From contig OZ287758.1 in assembly GCA_965649765.1 (NCBI GenBank), forward strand, positions 41,912,001 through 41,976,000: a stretch of DNA of 64,000 nt. The letters are read 5' to 3'. The position numbers were made by a program, and so were the translations under genes. Source of the DNA: Bispira polyomma (taxonomy: Eukaryota). Every line of letters begins with the position of its first letter. The stretch's first letter is position 1. Of this stretch, positions 55 to 56,785 are shown piece by piece. The notes under the pieces were generated by a model, which did not search any database, had not been told where the DNA came from, and saw only the letters and a list, made by a program, of their open reading frames with translations.

Positions 55-3000
55 CTGAAATGGTGAAATATAATAACAAATATTAATCTTAGTTGGTATG
101 AAAAATAACTTTCAATAAATAATCTAACTTGGCGTATAACGATCTATGTCTGCAAGAACAGTAAATTCTGAAAATATAATTTTTCCCAAACTAAAACCTT
201 AGTTCGCAAAGCTGGTGTATGAGAGTGATAATGAAGTCTTTGATGCCAATTATTCCTTCTGGATACTCTGTGGGTTTTATTCTCTTTTTTGAAAAGAACA
301 AAAATTAATATGACATTAAAGTACAAAGAGTATCTATTGTTCATATGATATGACTTTTAGTGTGCCTAATTGATGCCAGGCATCTTTTAAAGTGCAACTT
401 TATTGACAAAGTTGGTAAAATCATAGTTTGTTTATTCGAGCCTCTTTTATCTAAATATTCAGTTTTATGCACTCTTTACTCTGATAAAAATGTACGTCTT
501 CATATTGCTATCCCAAAAGCCTGGAGTGGGGATAAACAAGATGGCCGCCAAGGTTGAAAAATAGTTTGTAGTCATTTATGTCCGATCTACTTGAGCTACA
601 ACCCCAAAGATAAACTTTAAAGTTAAAATTTAAAGTCAAAATCAATAAATTTAAACTCTTACAATGTTAAGGGCATGTCTATTTATATGCTAAATATAAA
701 AGCGCTGCACTAGCAGCAAGTTTGTTGTTGACGGATTGACGGATGGACAGACTGAAAACAATGCTCCCTCCTGATGCACAAGAACATAAAAATCTACTTA
801 ACGGGATAACATATTACCTAGTTATGTAAGTTGGTACCCCTGCAGTAAAATCTACTGCAATAATATAAGCCAATTACCAGCACACGGAACAGAGGAGCAG
901 TGAAATGTGCCGCTCTAGCAAACATAAATGACGTGCCCAGTCCAACACTACGCATGTTGGTAGGGTAGAGTTCCGGAGTGTGGGCACAGACCCCAGCAAA
1001 AGAACAGGTAAAGCCCATCTTGCCCAAAACACTGAGTGTGACGATAAGCCAGGTATAGCCGCTACTCCAGTCTAGAATACAAAAAAAAAACCAGTGTTGC
1101 AGAGGTGATATTTACACAAGAGATCAAATTTGGATCAGCTGGGGTTGGTATTCACAAAACATGGTTTCTTGGGATCAAATAATGGATTAACTTTGATCCA
1201 GCCAACTTGGTGGATTACCTTTTAATCTGCATAGATTATATATAACTGACAGGAGTTGTTAGAGAGAAGAAGAAGAATACAAAAAACAGATCAAATATTT
1301 TATAGTTTCAGATGAAGTGATTCCTTGCTTTGTGAATATCGATTTGCTACAAGGATCACTTGAAATTTTTTTCTCAAATTTGATCTGGTCTTGATCCTTG
1401 TTTGTGAATAGCGTCCCTGGGCAACAGTGCCATATGACCATGTGGTTTACAATGGTGGATGGTACTTAATTGATTTTACAAATACTTTATGAAATTAAGG
1501 AGAACCTGATGTTCCTGTATCACGTCCTGTATACCCCTGATCTAAACTGGTAGTCATGGCTATGAAATATGATAAAAAGGGGATTGAATAAATAATATAA
1601 TGTCATAAAGATGAAATAGGACAATGTGCATAGATTATAAATCAGGTTATGGATTGTTATATGGCATACTACTAGTACCACTTTTATAGCGACTCTAAAT
1701 AATTAAATAACAGGGTCTCCCGCGGCCCAGTCGTTGGGAAATAGGTCTAGTGGTCAGAAGGTCTTAAGTTCAAGTCTCAATAGGATAAGTTGGTCTGGTG
1801 ATTGGAAGGCATTGGGAGCATAACACCTGATGTGAACATGCCATTGCCTACTGGTAAGAGGTTACGCTATGTTATAGAACACGTGATCGGTCATTTGCTT
1901 TGGTTGTTGCACTTTAGAAGATGCGTTGCATCAATAAACCTTGGTTAATTTATAGATAAATAATAATAATACTAAATATTTATTCATTTGATATAGCATT
2001 AATACAATACAATTACCTCTACTTTGTTTTAAATAGTGCGGATGTATAGATTAGGACGTACAAACTTGGGAATATACGAGAGATAAGTTTACTATTCTAT
2101 TACGTATCTCTCTGGGACAATGCAGAATTGCCTCACTGACCATATATTCTGATAACTGTTCCCATCAATGCTACTCCTGCAGCGATGTAGTAGATACACA
2201 GGGACAGTCTACGACCAATACTGTAACATATTATATGTAAACATCTGAACATGTTGTGGGGGCAAGATTCTGTTGGAATAATAGAAGGTTCATAAGTATA
2301 TGTTGGGATACATGTTAGCAAGGACCTTGTATAAATGTGTCTTCTAATCAATTGGTGCTTTGTAATGACAAAAATAAGTGTACAGAAATAAACCAGAAGT
2401 GCAATTTTAAAAGGGAGGAGACATTTTAATATAAAAATAAAGGAAAATATAAATTTGGGAGAGTTAAAATGTGTCTGTCAAATTATTTATGTCGGCCATA
2501 AATAAATACCAAACGAATAGCGTACTTAATTATTTGATAAAGTTAAAAAAATATACTTGAAATATTTTCAGTGATTATGGCTCTGAGCTTGCAATGTTTA
2601 AGATGGCTCTGGAATTGTGCCTTGGAGACTGTGTTCAGTACATTAGACCCTATAAAAGCCATTTCATAACATTAGACTGATGTAATGATATGATGGGGGT
2701 AGTTAGACAAGTATAAAAAGCACCATGTAGAGCGGGCAACCCTATCTGTAACGTCTACTGAGTATAGCTTTCTTCATAAATCTTTTGCAAGCAGCCGTGC
2801 CAAATGGATATGGTCAAACCGCCCACCTCACCATGGCGAAATTTTCTTCCGCTCATTTCTGAGTTTTTCCATATCACTACAGTAAGTCTTCCTGTCCCAG
2901 TAATCGACTGTTTCTGTCTGCTTCTAATTATTTCTGACTCTTTCTGACTATTACCGTGTCTCGTTAGTGTCAGTAATTGGTTGTTACCGTCTGTAAAACT

Positions 3001-6000
3001 CACCTGGACAAGTTTCAGTGGGTATATTTTTTTAAGATGAAACAGTCGATCTAAAAGATAACCTAAAGACTTTCTGGTACCACCTACTACCCGCCAATGT
3101 GTGAATCATACATTTATATGAATCGGGTATCATTATAGTGAATAATCTTTGAATCGTATTATAATTAATGTGTTTACTATACTAATAGGTTATTACTAAA
3201 GCTCAACTCACTAATGGAACATGATCCACAATATGATGTATGCTGGAACTTCTATGATGGAGTAGAGCAGTGCATTGACGTATCTGTTTCCCGGTAGATA
3301 GGTCACTGTCAAGGCAATAGCATGGTAACCAAGGGCGACAACAAACCTGCCGTCAAAAAGACACAATGAATAATACATAATGTGTACTTTAAAATAGTAA
3401 AATAGAAGTAACTAGAAGGGCAAACAAAAAAAATCCTGGTTCTGCCCTTCTACCCAGATTTGCTCAACATTGTATTTATTTCTTTTAGAACCCATGCTCA
3501 ACACTCTACCAAATTTTGAAATCACCAACAGCATTGATCGAAACATAACTTGTTTGGCAAAGATCAAGGTATTGTAATTGAAACATAAAAATACATACAT
3601 ATAACATTATTATTAAAATGCTGAAAAGATTGAAGCCCAATATCTAAGGATCTTAAGAATGGTTAACAATGTAATGAAACTATCACAGTATGTTTGAATT
3701 CGTAGTTGGCTAATGCATGGTAGGACCAACTTTAAATTCACCCCTAAAATAGCAGACACCATTTCTTTCTCCCAGGACCTATGCCTGTTGGCAAGCAGTC
3801 GACACTTAAATATTATTCTATTTTCCTTTAGTACCTTGCAATAGGAAATTCTTAGTATAGCAGATTTCCTTCAGTTGCTAGCAACAGTTTTCTGTTTGGG
3901 GCCGAAAGGGTTAAAACAGAATTGCTTCCTATAGGAAACAGTACATTTATACTTTTGGCATATTTTCATAAGGAATCAAATTGAAGTCTCTCATGATGTT
4001 ACCAATTTACAGGATATGACATCAACATAGACTAAATGGCCTGGGGCCAGAAGTGTTGACTTTGTAAACAAAATATTTTACTTTGCTCTGCTGTAAACTT
4101 ATGAAGAGGCTTGCCACTGTTGAGATTTGATCCTAGGTTGTCATGGATCTTGAGAAATAGGGGGTACCCCTGAATCCTGAGTGTTTAATGTGCTGATATA
4201 TATGGATATTACATCCCTTTCCCCCACTAAAATCTGTGCCAAAGTCTTATACAACTACATATACTACATTAACGTTACTACTCGCTTAGCTTAAGGGCAA
4301 GTTAATAAAAAAATCAGCTAAAAAAATACAAGGAAAAGCACTTTACCAAAATGGTGGAAAGCATGTTGATCAAAGACGTAATTTTTTAAGCAAATTTTAC
4401 ACAAATAATATAAATATAAGTATTACAAGACACTATTTTGTTATTATTATCATTTTGTAATATTTTAGCAAAACTTGGTGGCAAAACCCCAAAACCCTAT
4501 TTTTAAAATTTTGCGATGGAGTTAGTGACGTCACATTTGTACCAGCAGAGTGCATTCTAGGCAAGAAATACAAACCAGTTGAACCATTGGATGATAGAAT
4601 ACATCAGAATGGTTCTTGATCTAAACAGGTCCTTGATAGTGTATTTAGGTGCATCGTCTTTGGTTGTAGACTCCTCTTTAGTAGTTGTACTTTGAAGTTT
4701 CCCCAATAACCTGATATTATTTATAATACAATAATATAACTTGTACTTATGGCTTACAGTAAAATATTGTAGGAGGATGGGGCCCACAGTGGTTAGAAGC
4801 ATTTGTTTCATAACCATTTGCCCTTTAATAATGATGGTTCAAATCCTGGTTCTACCTTTATGTGGGAAAGTTTGTGAGGTACTTAGCATAACCGGTGGTT
4901 TACAGTGCTGAAGCACTGGTTTGATATGATCTAAGGTATACAAAGTGACAAAAAATTTAAAATTCATTTCTAAAACATTTGACAGGTCATTATGACTGGT
5001 CATTTTCTGCAGATACCATATGCACTATAGCTCAGATAACCACTGAAAATGGTGACTCTGTCCTAATGAGCAGGCTGGAGAATAATTCGGGCAATAGAAA
5101 AAAGTCACCTTCAAGCCTTTCTTTTCAAGTAAGGGAATGACATTTTCTGGTTAGTTGCACAGTCAAGAGAAGGTCAAATACCTCTTTGAATATCAAATAA
5201 AGGTAGCAAACTGTGCCAGGAATAAATTTAAATACAACACTGACATTGGAATACACATACAAGATTTAAATTCCATGTAAGGGGAGATACAAAGTGGCTC
5301 AGATGATCACTTTGAATTGTAAGTTTCTAATATATGGTGCGATCCCCAGTGCTTGGCCAAAAAAAAAGAAAAAAGTTTGGGATATGTTAAAACAATTTAA
5401 ATGATACTTTCGTAATTGTCTTGCAGTTAAATAAATATTTTTGCCCTTTAAAATTGATTTATTATCCTGAATGTTTTTTCTGGTCCTTCAACACAAAGCT
5501 TAGCTACCGGTCTTTTCAATATACAGTAAAACATCTATTATCTAAACTTCTGTTAAATTTCAGACAGTAAAAATTTAACAATAAAATTGAATATTTTGAT
5601 GACAGAAGTTCGTACTATTGTCCTATAAAGAAAGGCTGCTTCTAGTTTATGATCAAAATTTTAGCCTCTTAACATGTTCGGATAAGAGAGGTTCTGCAAT
5701 CAATATTTCACATGGACATTTATAAAATAAAGTATTCACAAACTTTCTAAAAGCCTTTGTGCTTTCTTTGTTTTTTGAATTTTCATTATCCTGATCCTCA
5801 TCAGTGTATTGCTTATTTTGGGCCTGAAGTGTCTTCAGTTCTTCTTGGTCTGCAGTAAATATATGTTCTGGGTAAGCTATCTTGTTCACCTTGGCCGCTT
5901 CGGTTAGAATAGTTTCAGCCTTTTGGTACTTTTTGTTGGCCACTAACCATGGTACAGATTCTGTCAGGAACCTATGAAAGTAAGTGATTACATAATGGCA

Positions 6001-9000
6001 TCATTTATCTTTTATATTTTTGTATGTTATTGCAGTGTTGAAAAACTTTTTCTACATGTTTGTTTATATCATCCAGAATATTTTTCTACATCCAGAATTT
6101 CTCTCACACATGTAAACAACAACCCAAATTTAAGAGACGGAAACTATCCTTTAATCCCAAGTCAATAGAGAAAGATTGTCCTCGCCTCTAAATATGAGAT
6201 ATGACTTAACAGCACTCTTTACATTTAAAAGTAAAAGCTTATTGGGTAACTGAGTTGCTGCTGAGGTCCTACCATCTTTGGTTGCCTTTACATAAGGCAA
6301 CCCCAGTCCAGGGTAGATTCTATGTATACTTGTAAAATGTGTAAATGTTGTGTAGATCAGGAATCTAAAGTAAACCAGATCTGGTGACACTCATGATGAG
6401 GGTGTATTATTAGCCAGATTTGAGAGTACAAATTGTAATTAGACTACCTAGTGCTTACAGTCCTCTTCGTAAAGGGGAGATTAAGGCACAACAAGGGGGC
6501 CGCGGTGGCCTAGTGGTTAGCAAGCATTGCGCTTCACAATCACTGGTCTCTCACCTCTGGGCGGCGTGAGTTCGAATCCTGTCGATGCCTATGTGGGAAA
6601 GGTGGTAGTTCCTTACTGTGGGCCGCTGGTTTCAGTGCAGAACCTTGACCGACTGTATGCAGTGTTTGCTCCAGCGTTTCCAACTACCCGTCCCAATATA
6701 ACCTACTAAAAGGTATTAGAGTGGACGTTAAATATCCAAATTCAAATTCAAATTAAGGCGCAACAACACCAAGACAGTGATCTAATTTTAATATCCAGGG
6801 ACAGAAAAAAGGTCAAGCACCACAGAGAACGCCAGGTGATGAATAAGACTAAGGTGGGTATGCCTTGGTGTACAGGTGGGTTTTGAGCTGCTTTCAAAAA
6901 GAGGCTAGAGAGGGGGATACACGAATAACACCATGAAGAGCATTCCAAACAGTGGGGGCATCAAAAGCAAAGCTGTAACCAAACTGTTAAACTGACTTTG
7001 GAGTAGATGGGTGGAACAAAATTACCACCAATCTGACTGCGCCTTTTAATGTAAGAACTACTGTGAGAGGAACGAAATGGGCAAAATACTTGAGAAAACC
7101 AGTGTGAAGAAACTTATAAACAAGTGTGACTGTTTTAAACACGGAGCCCTGTTCAACAGGAAGCCAATGCAATTTCTTAAGAACAGGAGTTATACTGGTG
7201 TATCGACTAGTGTATGACACTAGTGTAATTTGCGTAGATTAAACATGGAGAGACTCCTGAAAAGTGAATAACAGTAATTCAACCGACAAAAGCATTGGCC
7301 ACATGTATAGAAGCATCATGAGTAAGAAACCGCCTGACACCTCTGAAGTCCTGGAGTTGCACAAAAGTAAACAAAGTAAGCTTATTCTAAAAATAAACTT
7401 CTCATTTTGAAGTTCCTATGTTAAAACCTTTTTGTAAATATCAAGACTGCCTATATTGATGATTTATATAAGTTGAACAATTTAAAGTAATTTTTCATAA
7501 AATTTTCTGCATGACGTTTCTTTCAAGTGGTCCAACCGCGCACATTCGAAATGCTTATTCACTTTATTTTGGACTAATAAATCCATTCCATCTGGTATAT
7601 GGTAACCTGAATACACAGTAATATTTCTAATAAATAATGTTGTTGGGTAACAACTAATTTCAATATATTGTAATTAGTTATAGATCATGGATTCGCATGA
7701 CCTAGTGGTAAAATAGTTGGTTTGGTGACCAGAAGGTCCCGGGTTCGACCACTAGTTGGGGAGTTGGTCTTGTGGGAAAGTCACGGGTAAATATAAGATG
7801 ATACTAGTTGATCCAACACACTTAACACAAGTAAATTATTCTTATAACTATTATAGAAATAAGAAAAACACATGGCCTTCTGTGGCCTAGTAGCTACAGA
7901 CTTGGCCTGGACATTAGAAAGTCTCAACCCCCGATAATTACCATGATGGTTTTTGGAGGATAACATCCTTGGGCGATATGTGAACACTCTATTGCCTACT
8001 TATAATGATCAATGATATGTTGTTGGAATATCCCGGCCCTCTGTATCTGAACATCAAATGTGGAGCTGTGATAACTGAAAAATAAGCATCTTAAAGGTTC
8101 AACGTTTTGTAAATTCTGTAAAACGTAACATTAACCCGTTCAATCCCTAGGTTATCGGCTAGCAGGATTTCTTACTTCCAGAAATGATGTCTGTCGACAA
8201 GTAATCGAAACCCCTAGAACACGCTTTTCTTTTTCATCAGTTCCTTGTAATAATATATTCTTAGTACAACAGAATGATATGTGAGGCCGTTATTGAATGC
8301 AGGAAGTATTTTGAGGGGTAAGTTTTAGTAAATCAAGCTATATGTAACCCATTACAACAACAAAATTTGTTTTCAGTTCCCGGCAATAGTTTTCTTGAAA
8401 AGGTTGAATATTAGTAAATCAACAACAACATGGCAGAGTTTACCAACCAGTAAAACACCACAGTCAATGCAAGAGGAGCAGTGATGGCTATTTGTAGGTG
8501 TCTCCAGTTCCTTATCAGGTAAGCAAGGGGAATAAGGGAAACATAGCCAAATGCCCAAAAGAACTCTACTGCAACCCCAGCCAAGGTTCTCTGTTCTGTA
8601 GGAAACAGTTCTAGGCCCAGAATGAAAGCTGTCGAAACCATTCCCTGTGTGTAAGATATATAAATATATACATAAATATACAGAGTTTAATATATTACTC
8701 TAAAAGATAATTATAAAGGGTTTGTACAAAAATGTCTATAGATGTTATTGCTATAGATGTACCACCATATGCTGCAAGAGCATAAATTATCTTAAGATTA
8801 TTATTTTGAATGACACTTGCTTTGTTAATCCAATAACCATAAATGTTCATATGAGGAAAGAGACATGACATATAATAATTAACATTAGAGATTTTTGGTA
8901 AAATTATTAATGTAATTAATGTAATATTAATGTAATAAAATTCGAATATTTTTTATAATATTGGAATAAAAATAAGATGCTTAAATCTGTGTTCTATGTG

Positions 9001-12000
9001 TATTTTAAATAATCTTCTGGGCTATGAATTAATGTTGTCAGTCCTTCAGGCTTCAGGGTACTAATTCCACGCCATTTGTTATTTCTGGTGGCGTATTGGT
9101 TAGAGAGTTCTCAGTCCCAGTTCGACTCTAATGCAGCTAGGTTCAATGGTCGCATGACATCCTTGGGCAAGATATGAAGACACCTCTACCTACTGACGAT
9201 TACCCATGCTATGTTGTTAGGATCATCAACTTCAAAAGAATGAGTGCCTTGGAGGATGACATTTTTATTGCAGCATATTGCTCTGTTGATATAATGGTTA
9301 ACAAGGAAAAATACCCAAAACATTTTGTTACCTACCCCTAGCAGAGGGCCATTGGTCTTAGATGCATTACAAAGCACTCGGGTGTATTATAATCCCTACA
9401 TGTAATTGTATCCACATTTTTGTCACATTTAGTCAATTTTAGTGAAACTCACCTGTTGCTGGATACCATCAATAAAGCCCAATATAGTGTACATCCACAG
9501 GTTGACTGAGAATGCCTGGACAAAGGCAATCACCACGTTACTCCACATACAGGCCAGAAAGATGACCTTACGGCCATACGCATCACTATCAGGAGAGCGT
9601 GAAACAGAGGACACATCACGGTAATGTTATTGAGATATATACATATACATTTAGGTGAGAAGTAATTATTTCAGAACATTAACTAACCAAATAATAGGGG
9701 TTTAAACAAGCAGGCCAGAAAGATGATGTTGATGTTTGCCTAGTGGCGGGAATGACCACTAAAAATGGAGGTCCTCTGTCACTGGGTGCCCTATCCCCAG
9801 TGACTGGCTTAAGATCCCTGGATGCGTTGATAAATGGTCATTCTATCTTCAGTTAGGGAAATTACACATAAGTTGCACATAATTTATGTGTTCCCCTGTG
9901 GTCTAATGGTTAGAAGTTGATATGGTGATCAGAAGGTCTAGAGTTTGACTTCTTGTACAGCCTGCTAGTTTCTATATAGTGTGATAACATCCTTAGGCAA
10001 GAGGTGAGCTAGAATGACCTTAAAGTCGTGGTCCTTTGTCACTTGAGTTCTATCTCTAGTACGAATTTAAAGAAATTTAAAATGGCCCTATGTTGTATGT
10101 TATGTTATATCATTTATTCATAGAAATTCAGAATATTTTTTTAATGTTACACCTTGTTAAGTTGTTATAGTTATACATTATGGTCTCTCATAGCCTAGTG
10201 GTTACACAGTTGATGCAGTGATCGGAAGGCTTCTGGTTCAACTCCAAAAAAGGGAAATTGACGTAACAGAGTTTTAATTTTTAAAGGGCTTTGATGGCAT
10301 TGAATATTACCAGTCTATGTTTAATTTATTTATTTCTTCACTATGGCATTAACCAGTCATACTTTACCTAAGCTGTGGAAATACAAATGCCCCTAAGACT
10401 CCACCCACTTGGTTGATCGTCATTGATAACTCTACCAGCCAGTTCTTACCACAGACCAGGCTAAACTGATGTTCACCAAATAATAAATACAAATGCAAAC
10501 AAATGTATAGGTTTATAGGTTGATATACACCGTAGTAAGGTCTCATATGACTTGACATTTTACACCACCCATCTGGGTTCTTTCACTTGTCAACCAAGTG
10601 TTCAATTATTGCTCCCTCAGGAAGCATACTAGCTATGCTGACACATACGGCACAAAAACTAACACCCATTAGAGGCCAAGTCTCCATTTATAAACCTGGG
10701 TTGAAAGGAAAACTTTGGTTGAAGTACCTTGTCCAAGGGTACAATTTCCAAACCTGCAGCAAGCGAGGAAACAAAAGGTAGTATTATATAGTTTGAATGT
10801 AGTTGGTGCTTCCAACACCTTAGGTCATATCAAACTGGCCAGATTTAATGGTGGAAAGAAAACGTTGCTGAATCAGTGTAAAACCACCGACTTACAGCAA
10901 TTACTTGACAAACTTTTACACTGAAGAAATGAGATATGAACCCACATTAAGAAGAGAGCAGTGATCAAAAGCAGTTAGGATAATAGAGGTTCCTATGTAC
11001 CCATACAGGGGGGGACAGCAATTCACTCGAAATTCACGGGAATTTAACAAATATGAGCAAAAGGAAATAATGTTGAGGCAATTCACTGGTAATTTGTGTA
11101 GATCATTCCATTGCATATAAATCTGACTCGTATCCAGATACATTAAGATACTTCTGATGAATTTTAACCACAAGTTAGAAACTAAAGTCACTGGTTTAAT
11201 ATAGATTTGAAGTGGACAGCATTTCGCCATTTTCAAACAATAGTAAATATTTAGATTAAAATATTAATGATAGCTTTTATTAACAATAATAATTATATTA
11301 TAAAATAGTTAATGCACACAATACATCATATGAAAAACAGAAAAGAAACCCCAATACAGCCCGATAGCCAATCATTGGTACTGTCTAATCATCTACCTCA
11401 AATGTTGTGCAGTACCACTGTTTATTTAGCTGTATTGGTATTTTAAATTCATTTAAAATTTATTTAAGCAGACAGTATTCTATATATTAGAGGGGGAGGC
11501 ATGTGTATGTTATATGAATATTATAATGCGAAAATAATTCTTTTAAAATGAATATTATACAGTGATTATGTGTAATAACTATATTAATGGCGAAATGCTG
11601 TCCACCGCGAATTACTGTCCCCCCAGTATATCAAAGGTCACATTTTAAACTGGTCACCTACACACTTTACGTATCTACAGTAGGTTATTGTCTTAACAAC
11701 TGACCACATTTTAAACTGGTAATCTAATCACATCTGACTATGTTTTTATCCTTATTACTGAATATGTCAAGTACCATTTATTGGTCTTTGAGTTATTTAC
11801 ATTATTAATTAAACTGGCAACGTAGTAACATAACAGAGACTGAAGTAGGTTTTTGTTCCAGTTCCCTTAGTGTGTGATGGTAAGTAAAGAATTTTAAGGT
11901 TTGGAGATTTATTTTCTGTACATGTTAGTATCTATGTACAGGTTTATGAGATATATTTAAAATTTTAAAATATGTGTAAAATTTTTAATAAGCCCAAACC

Positions 12001-15000
12001 CAAAGTCAAAATAAAGAGGGTATAATTTCTGCAAATGTGGAAGGAATTATTGAGGCAGCTTGGGAAGGTGCTTGTAGGTATGTCCATACAGCAGAGCTCC
12101 GCCACAGCCCGTGTGCCATGATGTTTTGAAGTGATATATTGTTGTTAAAAGCAAGGGTAGCTCCGGATCTACGTAACGTGTGAAAGCCATGTATGGTGTG
12201 ATTTATGCCTATGTGTTGTAATACTGTTCTCAAAGCTGCCCTAACGTGTGAATCCACTATGGGGTGGTATGGGGGAGATGCAGTTACAAAGACGGGGGAG
12301 TGATCTGAGATTTTCCTGGATTGTAGAAGGTTCTGTAGAGCCCGTACTGGGCAGAGGAGTGGTATTTTTATTTTTTGTAATTGGACCACATGCGACTTTG
12401 ACCAGTCCTGCATGTTTTTGGCCCACTTGATGATTATGTGAAGCCCAGGAGGGCCAAATATCAAATCTTGGCGCAGCAAGTGCCTTGAGGGGTCAAATTG
12501 CCTTCTGGTGTGAGGGGCAATGTTCGACATGCGCAGGAAGCCGTAGAAAGCTACCAGAAATATGGCCCTGTAGAGTATGGGATCGCTAAGTATTTCACAA
12601 TTTTCAGAAATTGACAGTAATTGTTTGACATCAAATACTCCTTTAGGGGCTGGTCTAAAAGAAGTGTGAGTGAGGCTACGTGTGAACAGAGCAATGGAGT
12701 TATGTTGGAGCACTGTATGATTGAGATTATATTTCAAACACATTTTGGAGATATGTTGTTCTGTGTCAGATATTCTAGAAACGCTAGTACGGAGTGGACG
12801 GTGATGTCCTGTATTTGGACATACTGTAGAAACGACAAGTATGTTCTGAATTGGCTGGAGTATGCTGCTGTGGTAGAAGGTCTGAGAGCAGCATGTATTC
12901 TGTCAATGGCTGCCCTCCCTAAGGTGTCAGATGATGATGTAGCACCTGAAATTATATGTTAAGGTTTAAATTAAAGTGACTAATTGGAACTGGTTTATGT
13001 TCATACTGATTAAGTAACTGCATCATACTACGTTTAGGAGGATTGTCCGAATAGATTCTGGACAAAGCATCCGCCAATATGTTCTTTTTACCCTTAATGT
13101 GTACTATTTCTAAAGTAATGTCGTGTGTTGAAGTAAGCAACCAAATGTTGCGAATACAAGCAGCTAATTATGGATCTCTAGTTTTGCCAGTCTGGACAAC
13201 CAAGACCATGGCCATGTTGTCACAATGGACTGTCACCCTTTGGTGAGCCCAATTTTCTCCCCAAACTTTCAAAGCCACTACAATATTGACCATCTCTAAT
13301 TGTGTAATATGAAGGTCATATTGGTAAACATTATAGATAGGTGTATAGTAAACTTGGTCATTCCAAATGCCCCCCAAACCTGTGAGGCATGCATCTAAAT
13401 ACATTTCCTTGTTTGCCTTAATTGGGAGAGGATTTATATATGTGACCCCGTTGTAATTAAAAAGAAAATTAATGAACCAGTCTAAATCACTTTTAATGTT
13501 ATTAGTAATTTTGAAGCGCTTGGCTCCAGGGGAAGCCCTAAAAACTGAAAGGAGACGATTAATAAAGCAACGGGCAGGTTTTACACATTTGTGTATGTAA
13601 AGCAATTTTGATTGAAAATTTGTACGAGATATCCAGGATTTTTTTCGTGTATCGACACATGTTTGAAATATTTCAGCAATTTTTTCTTTAGTTATACTGT
13701 TCCCTTAGTAATGTCAATGTCAATACCCAAGAATGTGACCTTAGTAGAGGGAGCACAAACCTTATCAGGATTCATTGGAAGACCTACGTAATTCAGTAAT
13801 TTGCAGAGGTGTTCAAAACCTTGTTTTGCCTGAGATTCCGGACATATGCAAGCATAGTCGTCGATGTAGCAATGAAGGTTATAACCCAGTGTTTTCATCC
13901 AATCTGCTATGATATCCGAACATCGCTGAAAGATAGCATGGGCCCAGCCGAACGCCACGGCAGCGTCAACGTAATACTGGTCGTTATGTTTGATACCCAG
14001 CTTTAAGGCATCCACCGGATCGACTCCTAAATTTCTGAACACGCGGGCCACGTCCACCTTAAATATAAGTGGGTTATCAGTGTCCCGAATACTTGCAGTT
14101 ATATTGTCAATACTAGGAAATTTTAGTGAGAATTCCGTGTCATCATAAATTCCCCGACTAACATTGTCATTAACTGAATTACCTACCAGATAAGAGAGGT
14201 TAAGAATGACTCGTCTCTTACTGCCATCTTTGGGCCTAGTAAGTAAGGGTGAGCAGTGGAAATGAGAATCTGGGATGTTGGCCACAGGACCCAACATGGC
14301 ACCCTTACTCTTTTCTTTATCCAGATATTCGTCAATAGCCTTAGGAAATTGCAAAACAGAGTGGTGGTTAGGTAACATCTTGTGAGTTAAGTTGTTAGGA
14401 GTCACTGAATGACAGTGGAAAGCCAAACTTTAAATATTGTGTAATTATTTTGTCAGGGTGGTTCTGGGTGATATCCTCCCAGGCCTTAATGTTCAACTGA
14501 GATTTAATGGGAATGCGTGCCTGCTTATAGTTGGACACCCCTGTACTTCTAATAATGTTTGCTATATCAGTCATTTTACTCATACTATCTATCTGAACCG
14601 AATCCCTGTCAGGTCCAGTAAAATTGAAGGTTTTTCTAGAAAGTTTAATAAAGCCTAGACTTTTGGAAGAGTCTGTAATGTCCTTAATGTCACTTAGTTT
14701 AGAAGAAGAACTGTGTCCCATGTCGGGGCTGAACAACCCGTCGACGTGATCCCCAGGCGTAGTGTGCGCTCGTTTGCTACTCACTGATATACATGATAAC
14801 AAGTTTGCACAGACATATTGACCTTTTGTTTATCAGTAACCATTAGCTGAAAGCCTGGTAAATTGGCTAAACGCTGATAGCTAACACTTGTGGTACTTTT
14901 TATCCCATAGCAGAAACCTGACAAGCTGTCGTGTTTTGGAAAGTGCAAGTATACCACCTGGTGGTGACGATTATCTTGTGGACACACAAATATACAGTTT

Positions 15001-18000
15001 ATAGTAGAAACGTTACATTCAATTTCAGCAATATCACTATATGTTAGTGCATTATGAACTTCATAATGCCCAACCTGGTGTATATATTCATGAACTGTAC
15101 TTTTCTGAGTTGTACTTTCCCAGAAGTTCACTGTACTTTCACATTGTATTTTTTCTTCTTCACTAGCAATTACATGATACTTAGAGTTATTGACATTAGT
15201 TTCATTTCCTACTTTACTTCCAGAATAGCTATTAGTTTTAACATTAGAATTACTAACTATGCCACTGCTATTATTGCAATTTACAACATGTTCAATTGTT
15301 CGTCCACTTGGTCGTTGACTAGCTACCTATTTTGTTAACTGGTTGCCATCAGATGGCTTCTTAGTAGCATTCGCTTTGTTACATTTATGTTCAGGGTAAA
15401 CACTTTCTTTGTTTAGGTTACGGTAACAGTAATTATAAATATGCCTATATTGGCCATGATCATTTTCATTATTGCAAGAACCATTATTATAGTATTTGCA
15501 CAAAACTTTTGCCTTCTGAACCTGGTGCCTGGTCTGAGGGTTGACGAGTGCCAACTGAGAAGTGCTAAGGCGGTTCAACGCCCATTGTGTTGAGTTTGAC
15601 CAGTCGAGTCGCCCCTCTTCGATCTGCTGCATATTCCCGCCCCATGCTGCCCTCACTGCCGTCCATGGTAGTGCATCCCGGAATGAGTATATCATCTGGT
15701 GCAGCATTTGCCTCATCAGATTGGGGTCGGAAACCTGGGCGATGTTGGCGAGTTGCCCGGCTGCCCATTGGGGCATAGTAAGATCGTCGAAGCTTGGCCT
15801 CTTTCGGGCTGTTCCCCCTATCCATCCCTCATTAGCCCAACGCGACTGAGGTTCCACACCACATACGTCTGTGGTGTTGTAACGGCTGGACTTTTGGCGT
15901 AAGGACGTCTTACCTTGGGATAAGTCTTGTCGTAGTTGGGTGTCATATGCAGCCAGCCTTTGGTTCACAGCGGCGTTAACGTCCGGGATGGATTTCAGAA
16001 CATCAAGCCTGGGAATGATGCCGTCCCGTTGGTAGTCGTGATGTTGGTGGCCAGTATATGAAGTTGAGTGACCCAGCTGCTGAGCAGTCTGACCTGGACG
16101 CAGATTCGGGGGTAATGGCAACGCTGCGTGAGGACGTAAATCTAGCCTAGTGTTGTTCCTGACTGGTATTACGGGGGACGTCAAAAGGGTTAAATTAACT
16201 GACCCTTTCAGTTCTACTCTAGTCTTTTGTTAATGTCAGCGTTTGCCGACTCGAGACGCTGCAATATGGCCATTACCCCAGACAATCCGTTAGATCCCCC
16301 CATAGAAACCTCTGACTCGGCTAACGGTTCTCTTAAGTTTGTTACCACAGGGTCTTTAATCTTTGCAGAAGCAGCCCTCCTGGTGGTCACTGGTTTCTTA
16401 GTTGCTTGAGGTGCACTACCGGGAGTTTTCTTAGTTCTTCCCATACTTGTAACACGAGTGTGCTAGAACTGCACTAGTAAGTCTTTACCCGGTATAATAT
16501 ATGTATATGAATGTATGCTTAAGCTTAATGTAAAAAAAAGTAAAATCCTAACTACTTTAAAAACACATAAAACAAGATTCCAATTTTAACTTTTTCCAGT
16601 GTTGGAAGCTTGCTTTCAAAATGGTAGCATAAGCTATTTCAGGAGGGAGGTCAATAGGTTATTGGCTATGGCTGATAAGGTTCAATGAACAGCATTAACC
16701 AGAAGTGTTTTTAAAATGGTAATTAAAGTTGTGATGTGAACTGATACAGCAGTCTCCTGAAGTGGTCGTGCTAGTCATTCTTAGAAATAATTAGAGTAAA
16801 TCATCACATCCATGATTACAATATAGATTGGCATCCTAAGGACTTACAAATTCCCAAATTTTACATTGGTGACCCAGAGTTGGTCTTGATCCTGATTACT
16901 TACATCAACGACTAAAGTAGATTGGTAACCTAACCTCTGAATAGTGACAATAGTAAGTCTTTGATCTAATTATTTACAGAAGTCACCTACAGTAGACTGG
17001 TGGCCAAAATACTTTTCAACTGATTAGAGAACGTCTTTGTCCAAGGCTGGTATTCACAAAAATACCATTGGTTTGGAATATTCGTGCAGACAATCTAATG
17101 GCTGAACATCCTCAGACAATTATCAAAATTGCATTCTAAGAATGTTTGTAAATATGGCCCCTGATCATATCAGTGACTATTTTAAAGTAGCCTGATTATT
17201 TACAACTGGTTACAGTAGAGATATTTGCTTATTATTTACACAATGGCTGAATCAGACTGGTTACCTAATCACATACAAGTAGCAATACGTCACTCCTCAC
17301 CTCCAAACGCTACACTAAATATTGTTCAAAATTCACGTTACCACAATTGAGGCTATAGTCACTCAACAGCCCTCCTACCCTGCTTCTCTTTTTTGTAACC
17401 TAAAGAGATGTAATTTCTGTTTCTTTTTCCCCGACCTTACGACCTTGCAATGCCCATGGACTAAACAATTGGATCACTGATTCTGCTGTTGTGCTTTAGA
17501 AGATGTCTAGCATTAATAATAATAGTAGGCCTCGGTTCAGAGTACTTACATCAGTGACCAGTGTAGACTCGTAACCTGAGGCTGGGTCATACCAATAGCC
17601 ATGCTGACATTCAACTGTAGAGTTATCTATGCTGAAATTACTGTAAAGAAATTGTAATAATTGTAATCAGATTTATACTGACCGCATATATCTACCTTTA
17701 TCTGGTATTCAGAGCTTTAATTAACCCTTTCCTGACTGCAACAGTCAACTGATTTAGTTACTGTCACTGCTGTAACTGAAGAGAGAGGCTTGACCATTTA
17801 TCAACGTCAGCAATGATCTTTAGATTGCTATTGGGAATAGGACCCAGTGACAGAGGACCACCATTTTAAGTGGTTATCCGAGCCACTAGGAAAAAGTGTC
17901 TTGCCAAAGGATGTTATCCACCAATGAATCTAGCAGGTTCCGGGAATAGAATGCAGAACCTTCTGATCATCAGACCAACTCCCTCCTCTGTTCAACAGAC

Positions 18001-19864: not shown

Positions 19865-21273
19865 CTTGTCTTTATCTAGCCAGAAATATGCCCAGTATTT
19901 CTCTGAAAAAAATCAAGACTGCCACTACTTTTACTATTTCAACACTAGAAGGTGGACCAATTCAAAATAATGGACATTGAACACAGTTTGTACAACTACT
20001 GCATGACAATGAATATTCTGACCAAAGAAAATAATATGTTAATTGCTGCTGCATCCAATTTTAAAAAGGCAATACAGCATATACACTTGTATATACTTAC
20101 TGATTAGGATATGCACCACTTAGGATGGCTGTCAATCGCTTGTGGTGCTATAGAAGTAAAACATTAACATAATAGAAGTAGTATATGATATAGAGGTTTA
20201 TATGTGCAGAATTCACTTACTAGAACCTGGAAGAATGATACTGTAAATAAGCCGATCCTGTTGAAGACCTGACACAGACCTAAGCTGGTGCTTCACATGT
20301 TGGTGGGGTAGAGTTCTGGGGTGAATACATACAGGCAAGCTATACAACAGCTAAAGCCTATCTCACCAATGACACTGAGGTAAACAATCAGCCAGTCCAG
20401 TTCAGATCCCCAAGCTAAAGTGCAATCATATAGAGTACAGTACTCTAGAATATAATTGCTTTGGTAGTGCTCCTAATGAGTTCCTTTGATTGGAATAAAC
20501 ATGGATGTGTAAAACAATTTTCGTACAAGGTATCCATAGTAGTACTACAGTTTATAACCTCTATTATGTGAATGCATTGGGAGAGTGCCGATCTGTTTGA
20601 ATAAAAAAAATGTTCACAAGACAAAAGAGGTAGTTTAGTGCAAAACAGCAGGAAAAAAATGAGTGAAATTGACTTGATCAAATTAAAAATTTGCATGCAA
20701 ATTGTCAGGATACATATGTAGCCATAGCTTGAGACTTCCTGGTAAGTATACAACAAATATTTGTTTGATATAATTAGAAGAATATTGAAAGATTTCCATG
20801 AAATATACCTGTAAGTAATTTTCAGGAGTCACCCTGAAATATTATTGTTCTATTTTCCAAATATCAATGAAATAGCTGGTAGGGTTGCAGGTTCACTTTT
20901 AGGCTTAATGCTATCCAATAAGTTCTAGAGAAAAAGTTTTATCAATTTTAGAGTTGTTTTGGCTTTCAACACTGTTGTTAATGTATGAATGGGATCAGGA
21001 CATTCAAACATATGTGGTGACATCTTGTTTTGTTAAGCATGTAACTTAATCAATTTATACGGATAACAACATACTAAGAGGCAATCTGCACAAGGGTTCC
21101 TAGAAGAGCAAGTCCACCAAGAGTGAAGTACATAGCCATTAAATTCCTTTTGCCAATGCTGAAAAGATGGCAAACCAGTTGCGATTTTTCCAAAAATATT
21201 TACCATGTATGTAATAAAAGTATATATGGCATATATTTATCCACTTTATATCTACATATTACCTCGGTCAGGA

Positions 21274-21512
21274 TTGAATTTGAATTTGGAATATTTAACA
21301 TCCAATCTAGTACCTTTTAATCGGTTATATTGGGACAGATAGTTGAAATGCTGGAGGAAACAGTGCATACAGTTGTTCAAGATCCTGCACTGAAACTACT
21401 ACCTTTCCCACATAGGCATCGACAGGAGACGAACCCACTCCAGCTAATCCCAGAGATGAAAGACCAGTGATTTTAAAGGGCACACTTATAACCACTAGGC
21501 CACCGCAGCCCC
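21274..21512 (-). mobile_element. tRNA-derived SINE family 1
   Basis: Reverse complement of the 6495 family; imperfect TSD CCT(C/T)GGTCA(G/A)GA. Confidence 0.85.
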
Positions 21513-21759
21513 TCCTTGGTCAAGAACCTGTGACTTAAAATATAATGATTGCAGAGGTAGCATTTGACACTTCAAACTTTAGCTGTGTTTGGAGTTTATT
21601 GACCCTTGATCAAGATATTAGGACCATTATTTTGCCCATAACAGACAACTACATTATATTGCACTGCTTTTAAATTTGATGAATAACGAAATTCAGCACA
21701 AGTTTTTCACTAAGTAACATTTTAGTGCCCTACTCAGAATAGCTTGGTTTTTGGTATAA

Positions 21760-22975
21760 CCCAGGTAAGTAAAAAGGCAGGAATGGGGATATCAGTTTAA
21801 TTTTCTATGGTATATTTATTTACATACTCAAGAATGGCCACCATAGCACCCATAGTTTAAGGTTTATAAGTTAAGGTGACCTTGCCAACACCCAGCCTAG
21901 TAAGTATCAAGGTAAGATTTCTCCTAATCTGGGTATCGACCATTGGAGACCATTTTTGGTCTTTTTAAAATCCAAACAGAGGAAAGTTTTTGTGGTCTGG
22001 TGTGATAGCTAACAGAATTCTAGTAACTGCAAGGGGGAACCACTTAAAGTAGGGATTTTGAGAATCTAAGAACTTTTTGAGAACTTTTGACTACATTTTT
22101 CGACTGAAGGGTTTTAGACCACTTTATAATTATATGCAAGCCTGGAGGTGCAAAAAGCACATCTCCCCTAGCTAAGAGGGAGAATTGGGAAGCTGCATGG
22201 GGAATAAATTTTAAAACCTTAAAAAGGAGACAGAGGCCAAAAGATACACTGCTTTAAACACCAAACCCATGTACATGCTATCACATATTTGAATAATTTG
22301 GTGAAGGAGAGGTGTGTCTATGATTGCCTTAATCTTAGCCTTGAAGGGGATATTGAGTACTAAAGCTTTTTGATAATACTTGATCCGAGAATCAGCGAAA
22401 GTCGAGACATCAAGGCCATACAGGACCATTTTTGCTTTAATTGCTGGGAGATAATTTGCTATAGAGGGAGAAGAGACGTGGTTAACCACTAGTACCTCCA
22501 AGAAGGCCAGAATGATCAAAAACCAAAACCTCAAAATAACATATTTGTGTTAGCCCTCTCAGTAGCAGGTCTGAAAGCCTGGTGAGTTCTGTGTGAAGCC
22601 TGTGTAACAATCTTCATAAACTGGGAGGGAACATCTGAAAATTATATAGACCAATCTATTTCTAACATAGTGTCTTTAACCTTTAACCACTTGGGATTGG
22701 GTAACAATTTTAGTAATTTTGAGTTACTATCAGTGGTGACGTGCGATCAAGACAGCAGACCAGACACTGTGTTCAATCTGCCTAGTATGTGTATGGTTTA
22801 AGCCTGATGTGTCCACAGATGCCACCTCCATGAAAATATTTCTGGAAATTGCTGCTAGGGTCAGATCCCTAGTTTTACCAGCGTTGAGAATTGTGACTAC
22901 GGCTGCATTATCACACTGAAGTATTAAACGTTTACCAGCCCAAGTTGACTTCCATAGCCTGATAACACTTGTTTT
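21760..22975 (-). mobile_element. Second, decayed YR retrotransposon fragment (RNase H + YR)
   Basis: RLWKSTWAGKRLILQCDNAAVVTILNAGKTRDLTLAAISRNI (RNase H), then ...AFRPAT...LAFLEVLV...SIANYL...FKAVYLLASVSFLRF (YR). Related to, but distinct from, the 11860-16780 element. Confidence 0.82.
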
Positions 22976-23754
22976 AGACTATAACTGAGGCTTCTGAGAT
23001 TGAGTTCCCGACTTTAGGGCACTGTTTAAAATAAATGCCCTCAAATTGGGCATTATTTTCCACAGTGCCCTCTACCTTAATAATAAGGGGTCTCATTAAA
23101 ATACAACAGGTCATGTGACCACTTCTAAGCCAATAAAATCCTAGGATTATCTGCTGAGGTATTATATTTGTGACATATGGGTTGTTAGCAGTAACCTATA
23201 CAACTCTGAAAAATGAATGTAATATATAACCTTACTCACAAGTGAAACATGATCCACACAATGATATATGCTGGTATTTCTGTTAAGGAATGAAGCAGTG
23301 AATTGATCTTTCCGTCTCCTGGTGAATAAGTCACCATCAGAGCCATATCATTGTACCCTAATGATGTCACCAGCCTTGGAGAAAAAAACCAAACAAACAG
23401 TCAGTAACTCAAAACGCAGGCCTCTTAATTAGTGCTTCTCTAATACCATTTAATCTGTTAAACATGCGAGAACTTAAGGGTATAGACTTTAATACAGTTA
23501 TGGCAACCATGCACAAAACCAGTCCCACAAATGACTGAATGCTTTTCTCTTCGTCATATATACACACCTTTAATAGTCAAGGTGTGGAGATTGTAGTATC
23601 TCATGTATGTATTTATTATTGTATACAACTTTTAACCAAGTGAGCCCCTCTTGAAGAATTATTGTAACCACTTCATCTCCACAGTTATCTAAACAGCATA
23701 CCATCCCATTAATAATATATTATTGTACTATTAATAACGTTATAAACATGTGTA

Positions 23755-25590
23755 TCTTATCTGTATGTTGGATTCATGGCCAACATCTCTCATCAAAGAA
23801 TGTGGTGATATATTACTCCCATCCATTACAAAGCTTGTAAACTGCTCACTTACTGAGGCACATGTACCTGATGGTTTTAAAACAGCTGTGGTTACACCTC
23901 TTATTAAGAAGGCTTCTCTTCCAGTTGATGACCTGAAGAACTATCTCCCTGTATCTGGTGTTAGTTTCATCTTAAAACTGGTTGAACGTGGGGTTGCTAG
24001 GCAACTGTTAGATCACGTCTTTGTTCACAACTTAGACAACCCATACCAGTCTGCATATACAACAGGTCATTCGACTAAGACAGGGGGGCCGCGGTGGCCT
24101 TGTGGTTAGCAAGCATTGTGCTTCACAATCACTGGTCTCTCACCTCTGGGCGGCATGAGTTCGAATTCCGTCGATGCCTATGTGGGAAAGGTGCTAGTTC
24201 CTTACTGTGGGCCACTGGTTTCAGTGCAGAACCTTGATCAACTGTATGCAGTGTTTCCTCCAGCGTTTCCAACTACCCGTCCCTTTATAACCTAAACAGG
24301 TACTAGAGTGGACATTAAATATCCCAATTCAAATTCAAATTGAAATTCCACTGAGACATGCCTTCTGTCTATAAAAAATGAAGTTCACCTATCTTTGTAA
24401 AGAGGTGAACCTACTGCCCTGGTGTTGCTTGACCTCTCTGCTGCCTTTGACACCATTGATCATTGCACTCTTCTCAGTCGTCTCCAGACTTGGTTTGGAG
24501 TTGGGGGCTTTGTTCTTAAATGGTTCACTTCCTGCTTAACTGATCGGCTCTATCTTGTTCGATCTTTGTAAACTCTTGTTTGGTGTTCCTCAAGGTTCTG
24601 TTTTGGGCCCTCTGTTGTTCACACTGTAGACTGGCCCTTTCAGATTGGTTATCGGCAAATACAAAGGTATTAAGTTTCATGTTTATGCAGATGATACCCA
24701 AATTTATGTGCATCTATTCCATAAGAACACATCTACTGCCTTTGAACAGTTGAACAGGTGCCTTGACGATGTGAAAGAGTGGATGTCAACTGGTAAACTC
24801 AAACTTAATCCCGACAAGACTGAGTTTATAATCTTTGGCTCAAAATAGAGGGTTAAGTTGAAAGCATTGTTTCCAGTTGACATCCTAGGTAGCCCTTTCA
24901 GCCTAGCTGATTCTGTCAAGAACCTGAGTGTATGGTTTGACTCTGACTTTTCTTTCTCTAAACACATTCAGAGTGTCTGCAAAAGTTATTTTGTGCAACT
25001 CCAGGACTTTAGACGTGTCAGACGGTTTCTTACTTATGATGCTTCTATACTTGTGGCCAACGCTTTTATCAGTAGTAGACTGGATTACTGCAATTCGCTT
25101 TTCAGGAGTCTCTCAAAGTTTAATTTACGCAAATTACAATGCATTCAAAATAGTGCAGCTAGAATAGTGTCAAACACCAGTCGATACACCAGTATGACTC
25201 CTGTTCTTAAGAAATTGCATTGGCTCCCTGTTGAACAGCGTTCAGTGTTTAAAACAGCTACACTTGTTTATAAGTTTCTTCACACTGGGTTTCCAAAGTA
25301 TTTTGCCCTATATCTTTCCACTTACAGTAGTTCCTACAATACCAGACGTAGTCAGAGTGGTAGTAATTTCCTTGTCGTTCTGAAGTTCCACCCATCTACC
25401 CAAAAGTCGGTTAAACAGTTTGGTCACAGCTTTGCTTTTGATGCTCCCATTGTTTGAAATGCTCTTCCTGATGTGATTCGTGCTTCCCCCTCACTAATCT
25501 GTTTTAGAAAGCAGCTTAAAAACCAGTTGTATACTAAAGCATACCCACCTTAGTCTCTATCATCCCACGCTCTGTGGTGCTGACCCTTGT
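23755..25590 (+). mobile_element. L2/CR1-group LINE, 5'-truncated ORF2 (RT), decayed
   Basis: [70 protein letters not shown], ...KAYPP*; interrupted by a SINE. Confidence 0.92.
24083..24344 (+). mobile_element. tRNA-derived SINE family 1 inserted in the L2 RT
   Basis: Near-identical to the 6495 copy; TSD ATTC(G/C)ACT(A/G)AGACA at 24069-24082 and 24345-24358 duplicates the HSTET codons. Confidence 0.92.
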
Positions 25591-27869
25591 TCTATGGTAA
25601 GTAGATCTACTGTAACGATTGACCCAATGGTCTAAACTACAGCTGTACTTCATATAGCACTATACACAACTCCTTGAGTAACCCATTATGATCTTACATA
25701 TAGAAGTAGGTCTAGTGATCAGAAGGTCGTCAGTTAAAATATTGGTATTGTTAGAGTTAGAATTGGAGTAACCTATTCCAAACCAGTGATATATGGTATC
25801 ACTTACAACGATTATAGGCCTTTAAACACTGGTTCGCAATGAGCTATCCCTTACTTGCTTTACAACAATATGGATATAAACGCAATACAAAGGAGTAATT
25901 TATACAAAACAAGAAATAATTTTACGTTTGTCAGGCTTATCTCATTCAGAAGGGTTATCGCATTTGTAATATTAATGCCAATGCATACTTGTTTGACTGT
26001 AAACTCAACAAAAACATATAAATATTTTTATATCACAACTTTAATGTATGTCGATGAGCTATTTTATGTGGAAAAACACATTTCATTTATTTAAGCATCA
26101 ATTTAAATACTAACCTTGAAAATATGATGTACAATATATAAAGATTGATGTTGTTTTACTAAAATTATGTAATTGAGAAATTCTGATTATTGTCCCCCAA
26201 AAATATTTTGTTCTGTACAAAAAATTCAGTAGTTCTTGTTTTTCACAGGAAAGTTAAATACCAGTAAAGACCACAGTGAACACAAGAGGAGCTGTGAATG
26301 CTATTTGTAGATATCTCCAGTTACAGATGAAATAGGCAAATGGAACCAAAGATACAAAACTAAAGGTCCAGATAAATTCCAAAACCATACCAGCAAATGC
26401 CCTCTATTCCGTGGGGAACAGTCCTAGTCTCTATGGTAATATGGCCTGGAATGGAAGAATTGGATAAAATATGTCATATAGCACACCACATTTGTCAAAC
26501 ATAGAAACATAGTCTCCATGATAGCGTGCCTGGAATAGGAGAATTGAATGAAATGTGTAATATATGCAGGGATCTTAGTCAAAGATAGATTAATAGTCTC
26601 CATGATGGCATGGCCTGGAATGGGATAATTGGATTTAGTTTATTGTAGTTGGGTTGTATGTTGTTTTCAACAACTCAGGTCATATCACAAGAGCCAGATT
26701 TAATGGTGGAAGTAACCTGTAATGATCCGATGTAAACCACCCATCTGTGGCAAGTACCTGACAAACTTTCCTATATAAAAGAACAAATGGTTTTCAAACC
26801 CACATCAGTGAAAGGCCAGTGAAAGCGAGGCAGGCAATGGGAGAATTGGAGACATGCTATATACATATCACCATGATCAATCATAATAAGAATAATATAG
26901 TCTGTATTGCAAGCCTCCACTGCAATATGCTAATCATGTTACTCTTGATTTTTACACACCAGTCAAAACAAAAGTCACAACGGCCAGTCATAGTCAAGGT
27001 AACAAGCTCCAGATCGACAGCTTCAGTTAAAATCAAGGTGACAAGCAATAAAGGTTTTAGATGGAATCAACATCACCAACATCATAAATATAGTGAAACT
27101 TGACATCAATATTTATCCAGAAATGGTATTGTAACTATCATGATTGACATTTGTTTTCTGTTTCTATATGTATACAGACCACATGTCTCTAACGTTACAA
27201 TTGGGGTTCCACGGATAATCTACTGCAGCATGGGTAGTACTAGTCTATCAGTGATATTGTTGAGGCAGTATCTCAAAAATACACTAATTTCCTTTTCTCA
27301 AATACTTGCACTGGCTCTGTGGTTAACAATGCTTCAGCACTAGTTTCATTCACCAATGTATCTCGCCGTCGTGACATGACATCTTAAAAGTGGTATAAAA
27401 CTCAGCTGAATTCTAAATCAAATTAAACACAATAATTTCCAAAAAGTTTCAAACATTACAAATAACAAACAGTTTTAAACATCCTTCACAATAAATTAAC
27501 TCATTACAAGAATAAATAAATACACACTAATATGAATCAATTTTGTTACCATAGTAATTACTCACAGTTTATTATAAGGCAAGGCAATGAAGTATACAAG
27601 ATATACCTGTTGTTGGAGTCCATCCACAAACCCCACTATTGTATACATCCACATGTTGACTGAGAAAGCCTGGACAAAAGCAATCACAACATTACTCCAC
27701 AAACAGCCTCGAAAATCTTTCGGCCAAAAGCATTACTAGAATAAATTTTTTATTGATGTAGAACAGTATAGGTTCTCCAGTGATCACATATATTGTATAG
27801 CCTTAAACTCGGAACACTTTTCCGAATTAAATGCCGATTTTAGGCTAAGCTCCTGATAGGTTGTGGTCT

Positions 27870-50022: not shown

Positions 50023-50722
50023 CTTATCTTTACAAATTATCTAGTCACAAATATGTCCAGTATTTCTCTGAAATAAATCATGAACACTGTCATTACCTTT
50101 ATTATATCAACGGTGGAAGGTGGACAAATTCAAAATAATTGACATTGAACACAATGTGTAAAACTACTGCATTACAGTGAATATTTTGACAAAAAACAAT
50201 ATTATGATAATGGCTGGTGCATCGAGTTTTAATGAGGCAATGCAACATAAACACTTCTGACTGGCTGTCTAGTTCAAAAATCCTCAAGCTCAACTCAGAC
50301 TCAATTCAAAGGTCTTCCTATCTTCGAGAGATTAGATAACATACATAATATAACTGTATTTTAAGATTCAGAGCTAACATTCCTACTAAAGTAATATACC
50401 ATTTTTGGGGGCCTAATTTGACAAATTATTAATTGCACAAATATTACCATTGTCAGAGCCAAATATGGTATATTACGGTAGAAAAAGGACAGACATAACA
50501 TTAAAAATCATTCAATATTTCTGGGACCGTTTATAATTACCGCTGGCAGTGTACTAGTAGGTCTGATAAGGCTTTCTCAAGTGTCCTAACCTTTGTACCT
50601 TCACTTCATAAATCAAAAAGTCATTATAACAATAGTATCTCATATAGTGCTCCAAAGCTGTTAAATGATCTGCCTTGTGATATTCACTGTGCACCTCTCC
50701 TCACTTACCAGTTTAAAAAAAA

Positions 50723-56730: not shown

Positions 56731-56785
56731 CTTATATAGAACTGCCATATATCATAACAATTATAGTGACAGAATAACTCACCTT

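Follow-up and report, generated by a model that had tools for sequence, protein, structure and literature searches.

A predicted splice joining half of Gag to the tyrosine recombinase in a Ngaro-like retrotransposon relic of Bispira polyomma

The window analysed here, 64,000 nucleotides (nt) of the Bispira polyomma genome (contig OZ287758.1, positions 41,912,001 to 41,976,000 of GenBank assembly GCA_965649765.1; coordinates below are those of the window), holds on its minus strand a decayed Ngaro-like tyrosine recombinase (YR) retrotransposon, element 1, and a divergent remnant, element 2. It seems probable that the YR of this Ngaro-like lineage is expressed through a spliced RNA, with an acceptor just past the RNase H stop, and on balance we favour the exact form of a Gag-YR fusion running from a donor in mid-gag to that acceptor. 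Unspliced RNA would serve for Gag, Pol and the genome, and a spliced subgenomic RNA would join the donor, in phase 1 at an invariant Gag Q-G-K, to the acceptor. In intact relatives the product would have about 540 residues, made of the N-terminal half of Gag (basic tail, coiled coil, linker and short helical segment, ~220 residues) followed by the whole YR. Both the splicing itself and the pairing of the Q-G-K donor with this acceptor we infer from sequence. Quite how the three open reading frames (ORFs) of YR retrotransposons are expressed is largely unknown, and the proposed splicing is at odds with the stated Ngaro model. Element 1 is a dead relic, itself unable to make a Gag-YR fusion, and therefore the evidence for splicing is comparative.

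The predicted acceptor at the start of the recombinase

In element 1 the acceptor AG lies at 12947-12946 on the minus strand, six bases past the RNase H stop, in ATA TAA TTTCAG/GT GCT (the slash marks the predicted splice), and opens the N-terminal YR frame in phase 1; that frame has no Met from the upstream stop at 12961-12959 to its break. The first-pass annotation of this DNA had claimed this acceptor, its phase and a YR frame without a starting ATG, and in all three it read the sequence correctly. With donor and acceptor both in phase 1, gag S-Q runs into G-A-T-S-S-S of the YR frame, and the 2968 nt that it took to be removed agree by arithmetic. The host exon at 17631, just upstream of element 1, has an identical acceptor, TAATTTCAG, and the acceptors of host exons in the window are AT-rich.

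The comparison with relatives used 50%-identity representatives, the best 150 of 3662 YR matches, from which a profile of the SAM-like part had 68 rows (window included), with 41 relatives having the anchor residue and 19 reaching at least 22 residues upstream of it; pairwise identity among these 19 is 24-56% (median 32%). At offsets −22 to −18 a YAG in phase 1 fits 18 of the 19, again drawn from the best 150 of 3662, against a background of 0.42, whereas phase 0 fits 1/19 (background 0.21) and phase 2 fits 9/19 (0.48). A dipeptide [STPALIV]-G occurs there in 12/19 (background 0.075), and one further relative has G after another residue. Residues directly upstream of the site are mostly F, L, I and S, and the T-richness of the codons is 0.44 for residues just upstream versus 0.23 downstream (n=14). 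The phase-1 fit becomes 17/17 once two joined- or frameshifted-looking rows are removed, and a held-out relative (P0188) fits as well. Among relatives the spacing from the site to the first YR motif changes in multiples of a codon and leaves the phase constant, implying translation across the junction. Called YR starts range from −99 to −5 with no conserved Met position, so that the conserved in-frame ATG that would have spoken for separate translation of YR is not seen among these proteins, which may include spliced gene models. As a prediction from these sequences, a conserved acceptor in phase 1 at the YR start is well supported.

Element 2, which has a protein identity of ~30-40% to its best relatives, extends this to DNA. 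Past its RNase H stop it reads ATA TAA TTTTCAG/AT, the acceptor ending seven bases after the stop, and the spacing from acceptor to the conserved R-P is 21 residues in both elements. Their alignment at the acceptor has 12 identical bases with one gap, set within poorly matching flanks, and the string ATATAATT(T)TCAG occurs twice in 128 kb (the window, both strands), at the YR junctions of elements 1 and 2 only. Neither gag nor reverse transcriptase (RT) was found in element 2, so it offers no test of the donor.

The predicted donor and the Gag that it would divide

The donor GT lies at 15913-15912 on the minus strand, in phase 1 of the gag frame reading S-Q-G-K, as the first-pass annotation had it, and ranks first of the 223 GT sites in element 1 on a generic splice-site matrix. 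Over both strands of the window 25 of 7690 GT sites score as high, and ~0.07 would be expected in phase 1 within gag. For comparison there were 10 homologue clusters at 35-45% identity to the window gag, which with the window sequence make 11 rows. Q-G-K is invariant in 11/11 with variable flanking residues, and Gly106 is the sole gag column compatible with AG/GTRAG in all 11, the runner-up column reaching 5/11. The conservation asked for in the first-pass annotation is seen for the acceptor and its phase in the DNA of two elements and in the residues of 18/19 relatives, and for the donor as protein, with donor DNA coming from one element only.

A structural model of an intact gag relative, P0154 (mean predicted local distance difference test score, pLDDT, 42; core 66-77), has a helix at 196-218 that ends at Q219-G220 and is followed by a disordered stretch, and by this model the donor site falls at a domain boundary of Gag. 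The conserved helical core (265-346) and the Cys/His knuckle lie downstream of Q219-G220 in the model. The intron would take out the whole conserved core and not just the zinc knuckle; the first-pass annotation had the zinc knuckle, RT and RNase H rightly within the removed part and left the core unmentioned. Compared with solved capsid (CA) domains the core, from this low-confidence model (mean pLDDT 42), gave a best Z of 6.3, and Foldseek returned 0 matches at E 0.001. The C and H columns of the knuckle, a feature of Ngaro-like Gag, are conserved across the 11 gag sequences; no Pfam family matched gag. An ESM Atlas look-up gave eukaryotic clusters only, with a low recognition score, and a PDB sequence search with the YR profile gave 0 matches.

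What the fusion would keep is the coiled coil. All 8 gags checked carry R-h-x-x-h-E, a motif linked to trimers, and P0154 residues 58-102 in three copies were modelled as a parallel trimer with a score of 0.64 (best of 3 controls 0.02), at least 89% contact agreement between runs and pLDDT of at least 73. The mark for that score was reached by 17/29 eukaryotic self-pairing proteins (animals 7/16) and 0/30 single chains, but the calibration was made on two copies, unlike the three-copy job, and solved coiled coils known to the model may account for a pass. The fusion may then co-assemble with full-length Gag through the coiled coil, as the trimer model suggests, and it is a tentative proposal that co-trimerisation carries YR into the particle. 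The first-pass annotation suggested that the Gag N-terminus could route the recombinase there, which is plausible via the coiled coil and not via the Gag core, the core being removed by the splice. Equally tentative is the extension to a broad Ngaro-like clade, in which a spliced fusion of the Gag N-half and YR would co-assemble with full-length Gag by a trimeric coiled coil and so load the recombinase into the particle.

Points against, and other routes to the recombinase

Several observations weigh against the spliced fusion. The first-pass annotation called the acceptor strong, which is not borne out by the generic matrix, where it falls outside the top 15 of 255 AG sites in element 1. The offset window −22 to −18 was picked after the data were seen, and two other windows of 263, at catalytic motifs, reach 18/18 and 18/19, and therefore binomial P values are overstated; distinct dipeptides number 6 and 10 in those two windows versus 16 at the acceptor window. 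T-richness by itself does not mark out the acceptor window, and element 2 carries an ATG in frame six codons after its acceptor and 15 before R-P. For the donor, the GGT/AAG codons at Q-G-K are known as DNA from one element alone, with a chance of ~0.12 by its codon use, and the Gly, sitting at the end of a modelled helix, may be kept for structure (helix capping). All 10 gag clusters are ENA records, perhaps from few genomes. GTDB scans for DNA of outside relatives gave 9 and 32 pattern matches with none confirmed, and a broader alignment gave no usable pattern. Nor was a Gag-YR fusion protein found among 2 + 150 + 5 YR matches or the 10 gag clusters: the searches at longer lengths (2 and 5 matches) returned either long, distant proteins or YR joined to RT/RNase H, a gag match was absent from all 152 proteins gathered (best E 0.31), and by inspection of ends 0/35 gag-cluster proteins end in YR. 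This negative is weak evidence, the records looking like genomic gene calls. Of the fusion put forward in the first-pass annotation, the matching phases and the conserved sites hold, while this copy is dead and three protein searches returned no such protein.

The acceptor could be real and joined to some other upstream exon, whether from a gag donor elsewhere or from a leader exon that supplies an ATG, with Q-G-K preserved by constraints on the protein. The acceptor evidence is entirely blind to the donor, and gag has further phase-1 GT sites at 16093 and 15859. A conserved phase 1 nevertheless demands an upstream exon that codes in that phase, and the donor at 15913 is both the top donor of element 1 and the sole one with a footprint in all the gags, and we regard another exon as unlikely.

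A programmed −1 frameshift from RNase H, giving a Pol-YR protein and leaving the splice-like motifs incidental, is what has been guessed in print for Ngaro (Poulter and Butler 2015, quoted in PMC13003380), whereas the acceptor and gag donor here point to splicing. The YR of element 1 does lie in the −1 frame with TTTAAAC in the right frame upstream of it, the YR frames of P0115, P0040 and P0024 run well upstream, and a slippery-compatible dipeptide is present in 5/19 relatives, which is weak, as only residues past the called start are visible. Yet in element 1 the YR frame is stopped two codons past TTTAAAC, the only slippery site; one decay mutation could have created that stop, which leaves frameshifting weakened. 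Back-translated by hand on the assumption of an NTG start, two close relatives whose called proteins start M-I in the third frame (P0139 and P0073) would have the YR frame closed by a TGA, lying 5 and 7 codons short of the acceptor, a stop other than that of element 1 and at or near its place. In element 2 a slippery heptamer is absent from 22760-22630, and RNase H and YR share one frame, though in this decayed copy a single T decides it. The fungal Ngaro YR is in frame or shifted according to passages of PMC3783388, which splicing would explain, and a conserved YAG in one phase is not predicted by frameshifting, so that this route appears quite improbable.

Least probable seems a start of YR's own, whether ribosomes re-initiate past the RNase H stop, use an ATGA that overlaps it, or begin at a Met further downstream or at a non-AUG codon. 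P0085, P0120 and P0150 begin M-I-[AVT]-G at the site, as fits a start overlapping a TGA stop, called starts fall between −19 and −5 in 22 of the 41 anchored relatives, and the ATG of element 2 is in frame. Element 1 on the other hand has no in-frame ATG, called starts (ATG or other codons) are scattered with no shared position, and the acceptor motif is left unexplained; an own start is possible in some families. Exonisation into the host gene, in one of whose introns element 1 lies in sense, was rejected as a cause of the splice signals, the footprints being common to relatives elsewhere.

Relation to known elements and what splicing would mean

RT, RNase H and YR are co-oriented in element 1 with YR last (Pfam RVT_1, RT_RNaseH at a weak E of 0.012 and Phage_integrase; tblastn). 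No methyltransferase gave a Pfam match in 9 frames, and there is no room for one between the RNase H stop and YR. Both DIRS1-like elements, with a methyltransferase after RNase H, and PAT-like elements, which pair a methyltransferase with split direct repeats, were ruled out on its absence. Ngaro-like elements, of order DIRS, have gag, RT/RNase H and YR on one strand and no methyltransferase, as given in passages of PMC4157794, PMC3266345 and PMC13003380. Element 1 has the same gene order, with a YR that starts in the −1 frame where RNase H ends, and by this order and the lack of a methyltransferase it works as a Ngaro element would. Split direct repeats of the Ngaro-like kind (A1 ... B1-A2-B2) were not found in element 1, whose 3' end is apparently lost, and inverted terminal repeats with an internal complementary region, as in DIRS1-like elements, were not found either, its termini being decayed.

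Splicing to a downstream ORF from a 5' donor is used for the env RNAs of retroviruses and insect endogenous retroviruses and for foamy-virus pol, with a few codons of Gag retained in the env of avian leukosis virus. In those viruses the splice starts from the leader or from the very first codons of gag, and integrase arrives as part of Pol; the fusion predicted here would by contrast retain ~220 Gag residues, coiled coil included, and would lead into a tyrosine recombinase. In LINE-1, ORF1p has a trimeric N-terminal coiled coil with R-h-x-x-h-E, and the modelled trimer here resembles it, by analogy, in both coiled coil and motif. The Arabidopsis Ty1/Copia element EVD makes a spliced subgenomic GAG RNA, conserved alternative splicing setting its protein ratios (PMC5580714); it is likewise a case of retrotransposon splicing, but its product is Gag alone and not half of Gag with an integrating enzyme.

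Introns have reportedly been noted early on in certain fungal YR elements, and a prior description of spliced YR expression is possible, if rather unlikely. None was found in the open literature, subscription reviews and Repbase reports lying outside that scope, and spliced YR expression is undescribed in the passages available of PMC7192593, PMC4157794, PMC9341512, PMC8547959, PMC2632668, PMC3266345, PMC9210276, PMC6681497, PMC9940879, PMC3783388, PMC13003380 and PMC5580714. The word "spliced" in the passage of PMC7192593 refers to an engineered marker and not to YR expression.

If the spliced fusion and its loading through the coiled coil are correct, this would be a third way of packaging an integrase, beside Gag-Pol polyproteins and the frameshifting presumed in Ngaro, and it would account for the freedom of the YR frame to vary relative to RNase H. 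The YR ORF would be an exon and the real protein ~220 residues longer, which would change annotation; the recombinase would have a route to the cDNA, and splicing would offer the host a handle on mobility. The predicted gag-to-YR splice gives an exact junction that is testable at once in existing RNA-seq.

Element 1 and its setting

The features of both elements are collected in Table 1. The flanks of element 1 (11639-11856 and 16800-17428) align to an unbroken stretch at 35622-35839 and 35877-36592, and this older repeat is the insertion target of element 1. Decay is visible in gag, where a stop and a frame break lie near 16229-16214, in pol, which is broken at several points and has an RNase H stop at 13167-13165, and in YR, split near 12734-12713 into two frames. 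Some 150 nt remain past the YR stop, and the 3' end appears lost.

Table 1. Coordinates of the two elements, their coding pieces and the predicted processing signals (a slash marks a predicted splice)
Feature	Position	Strand	Basis
Element 1, decayed Ngaro-like YR retrotransposon	~11857..16799	-	matching repeat at both flanks
Host exons around element 1	17631-17551, and from 10753	-	
gag 5' piece: ATG at 16444, basic N-terminus, coiled coil ~16276-16217, premature stop at end	16214..16444	-	gag profile match 16432-16213
gag 3' piece: linker, helical segment up to Q-G-K, conserved helical core, Cys/His knuckle, stop 15329-15327	15327..16229	-	10 homologue clusters at 35-45%; model of intact relative
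Reverse transcriptase region, split over frames	13692..14829	-	RVT_1 E 3e-9; tblastn of P0001/P0002
RT thumb and RNase H, one internal stop, terminal stop 12954-12952	12952..13704	-	Pfam; tblastn
YR N-terminal SAM-like domain, in-frame Met absent	12734..12945	-	Phage_int_SAM_1 E 1.6e-4
YR catalytic domain, second frame past a break	12006..12731	-	Phage_integrase E 4.8e-8
Predicted splice donor CAAG/GTAAGA, phase 1, encodes invariant Q-G-K	15908..15917	-	splice matrix; gag alignment
Predicted splice acceptor ATATAATTTCAG/G, phase 1	12945..12957	-	sequence; element 2; relatives
Predicted 2968-nt intron: gag core and knuckle, all pol	12946..15913	-	inferred from donor and acceptor sites
Slippery-type heptamer TTTAAAC in RNase H frame; −1 (YR) frame closed by stop 12961-12959	12964..12970	-	sequence
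Element 2, divergent remnant: RNase H C-half and YR	~21866..22990	-	similarity search and alignment
Element 2 predicted acceptor ATATAATTTTCAG/A, phase 1, past RNase H stop 22644-22642	22634..22647	-	alignment to element 1

At the end of gag, the letters over the stop (15340-15295, minus strand; AAA TAG GTA GC ... CAA CGA CCA) recur in the frameshifted tail of the relative P0185, the gag frame of element 1 is open for 181 codons beyond its stop, and Lys is last in 8 of 10 full-ended gag sequences. This region may be a stop-readthrough signal for Pol. A hairpin 3' of the stop was looked for, and the local fold is no better than shuffles (z 0.18).

Element 1 sits sense-oriented in an intron of a host MFS/SLC22-like transporter gene, which in Pfam has weak MFS_1/Sugar_tr matches only and for which the SLC22 name is our presumption. 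Three tandem copies of such genes lie on the minus strand (860-17631, 20215-27714 and 33151-46103), and the middle copy has stops and is pseudogene-like; element 2 is in an intron of that copy, also sense-oriented. Upstream of element 2, at ~23700-25500 on the plus strand, ORF remnants are LINE-like by eye and without a Pfam match. At 11212-11605 perfect 20-nt inverted repeats ~390 nt apart resemble a small non-autonomous DNA transposon. Among the proteins gathered, P0189 and P0190, of 1500-1800 residues, combine a weak match to YR with a Pfam domain of DnaJ type. Further along, ORF fragments of a C2H2 zinc-finger type occur at 47585-48544 on the plus strand (Pfam E 2e-12), tandem arrays with units of ~60 nt and 38 nt occupy 50631-52483 and 56465-56768, and GC skew is strong at 51-52 kb of the window.

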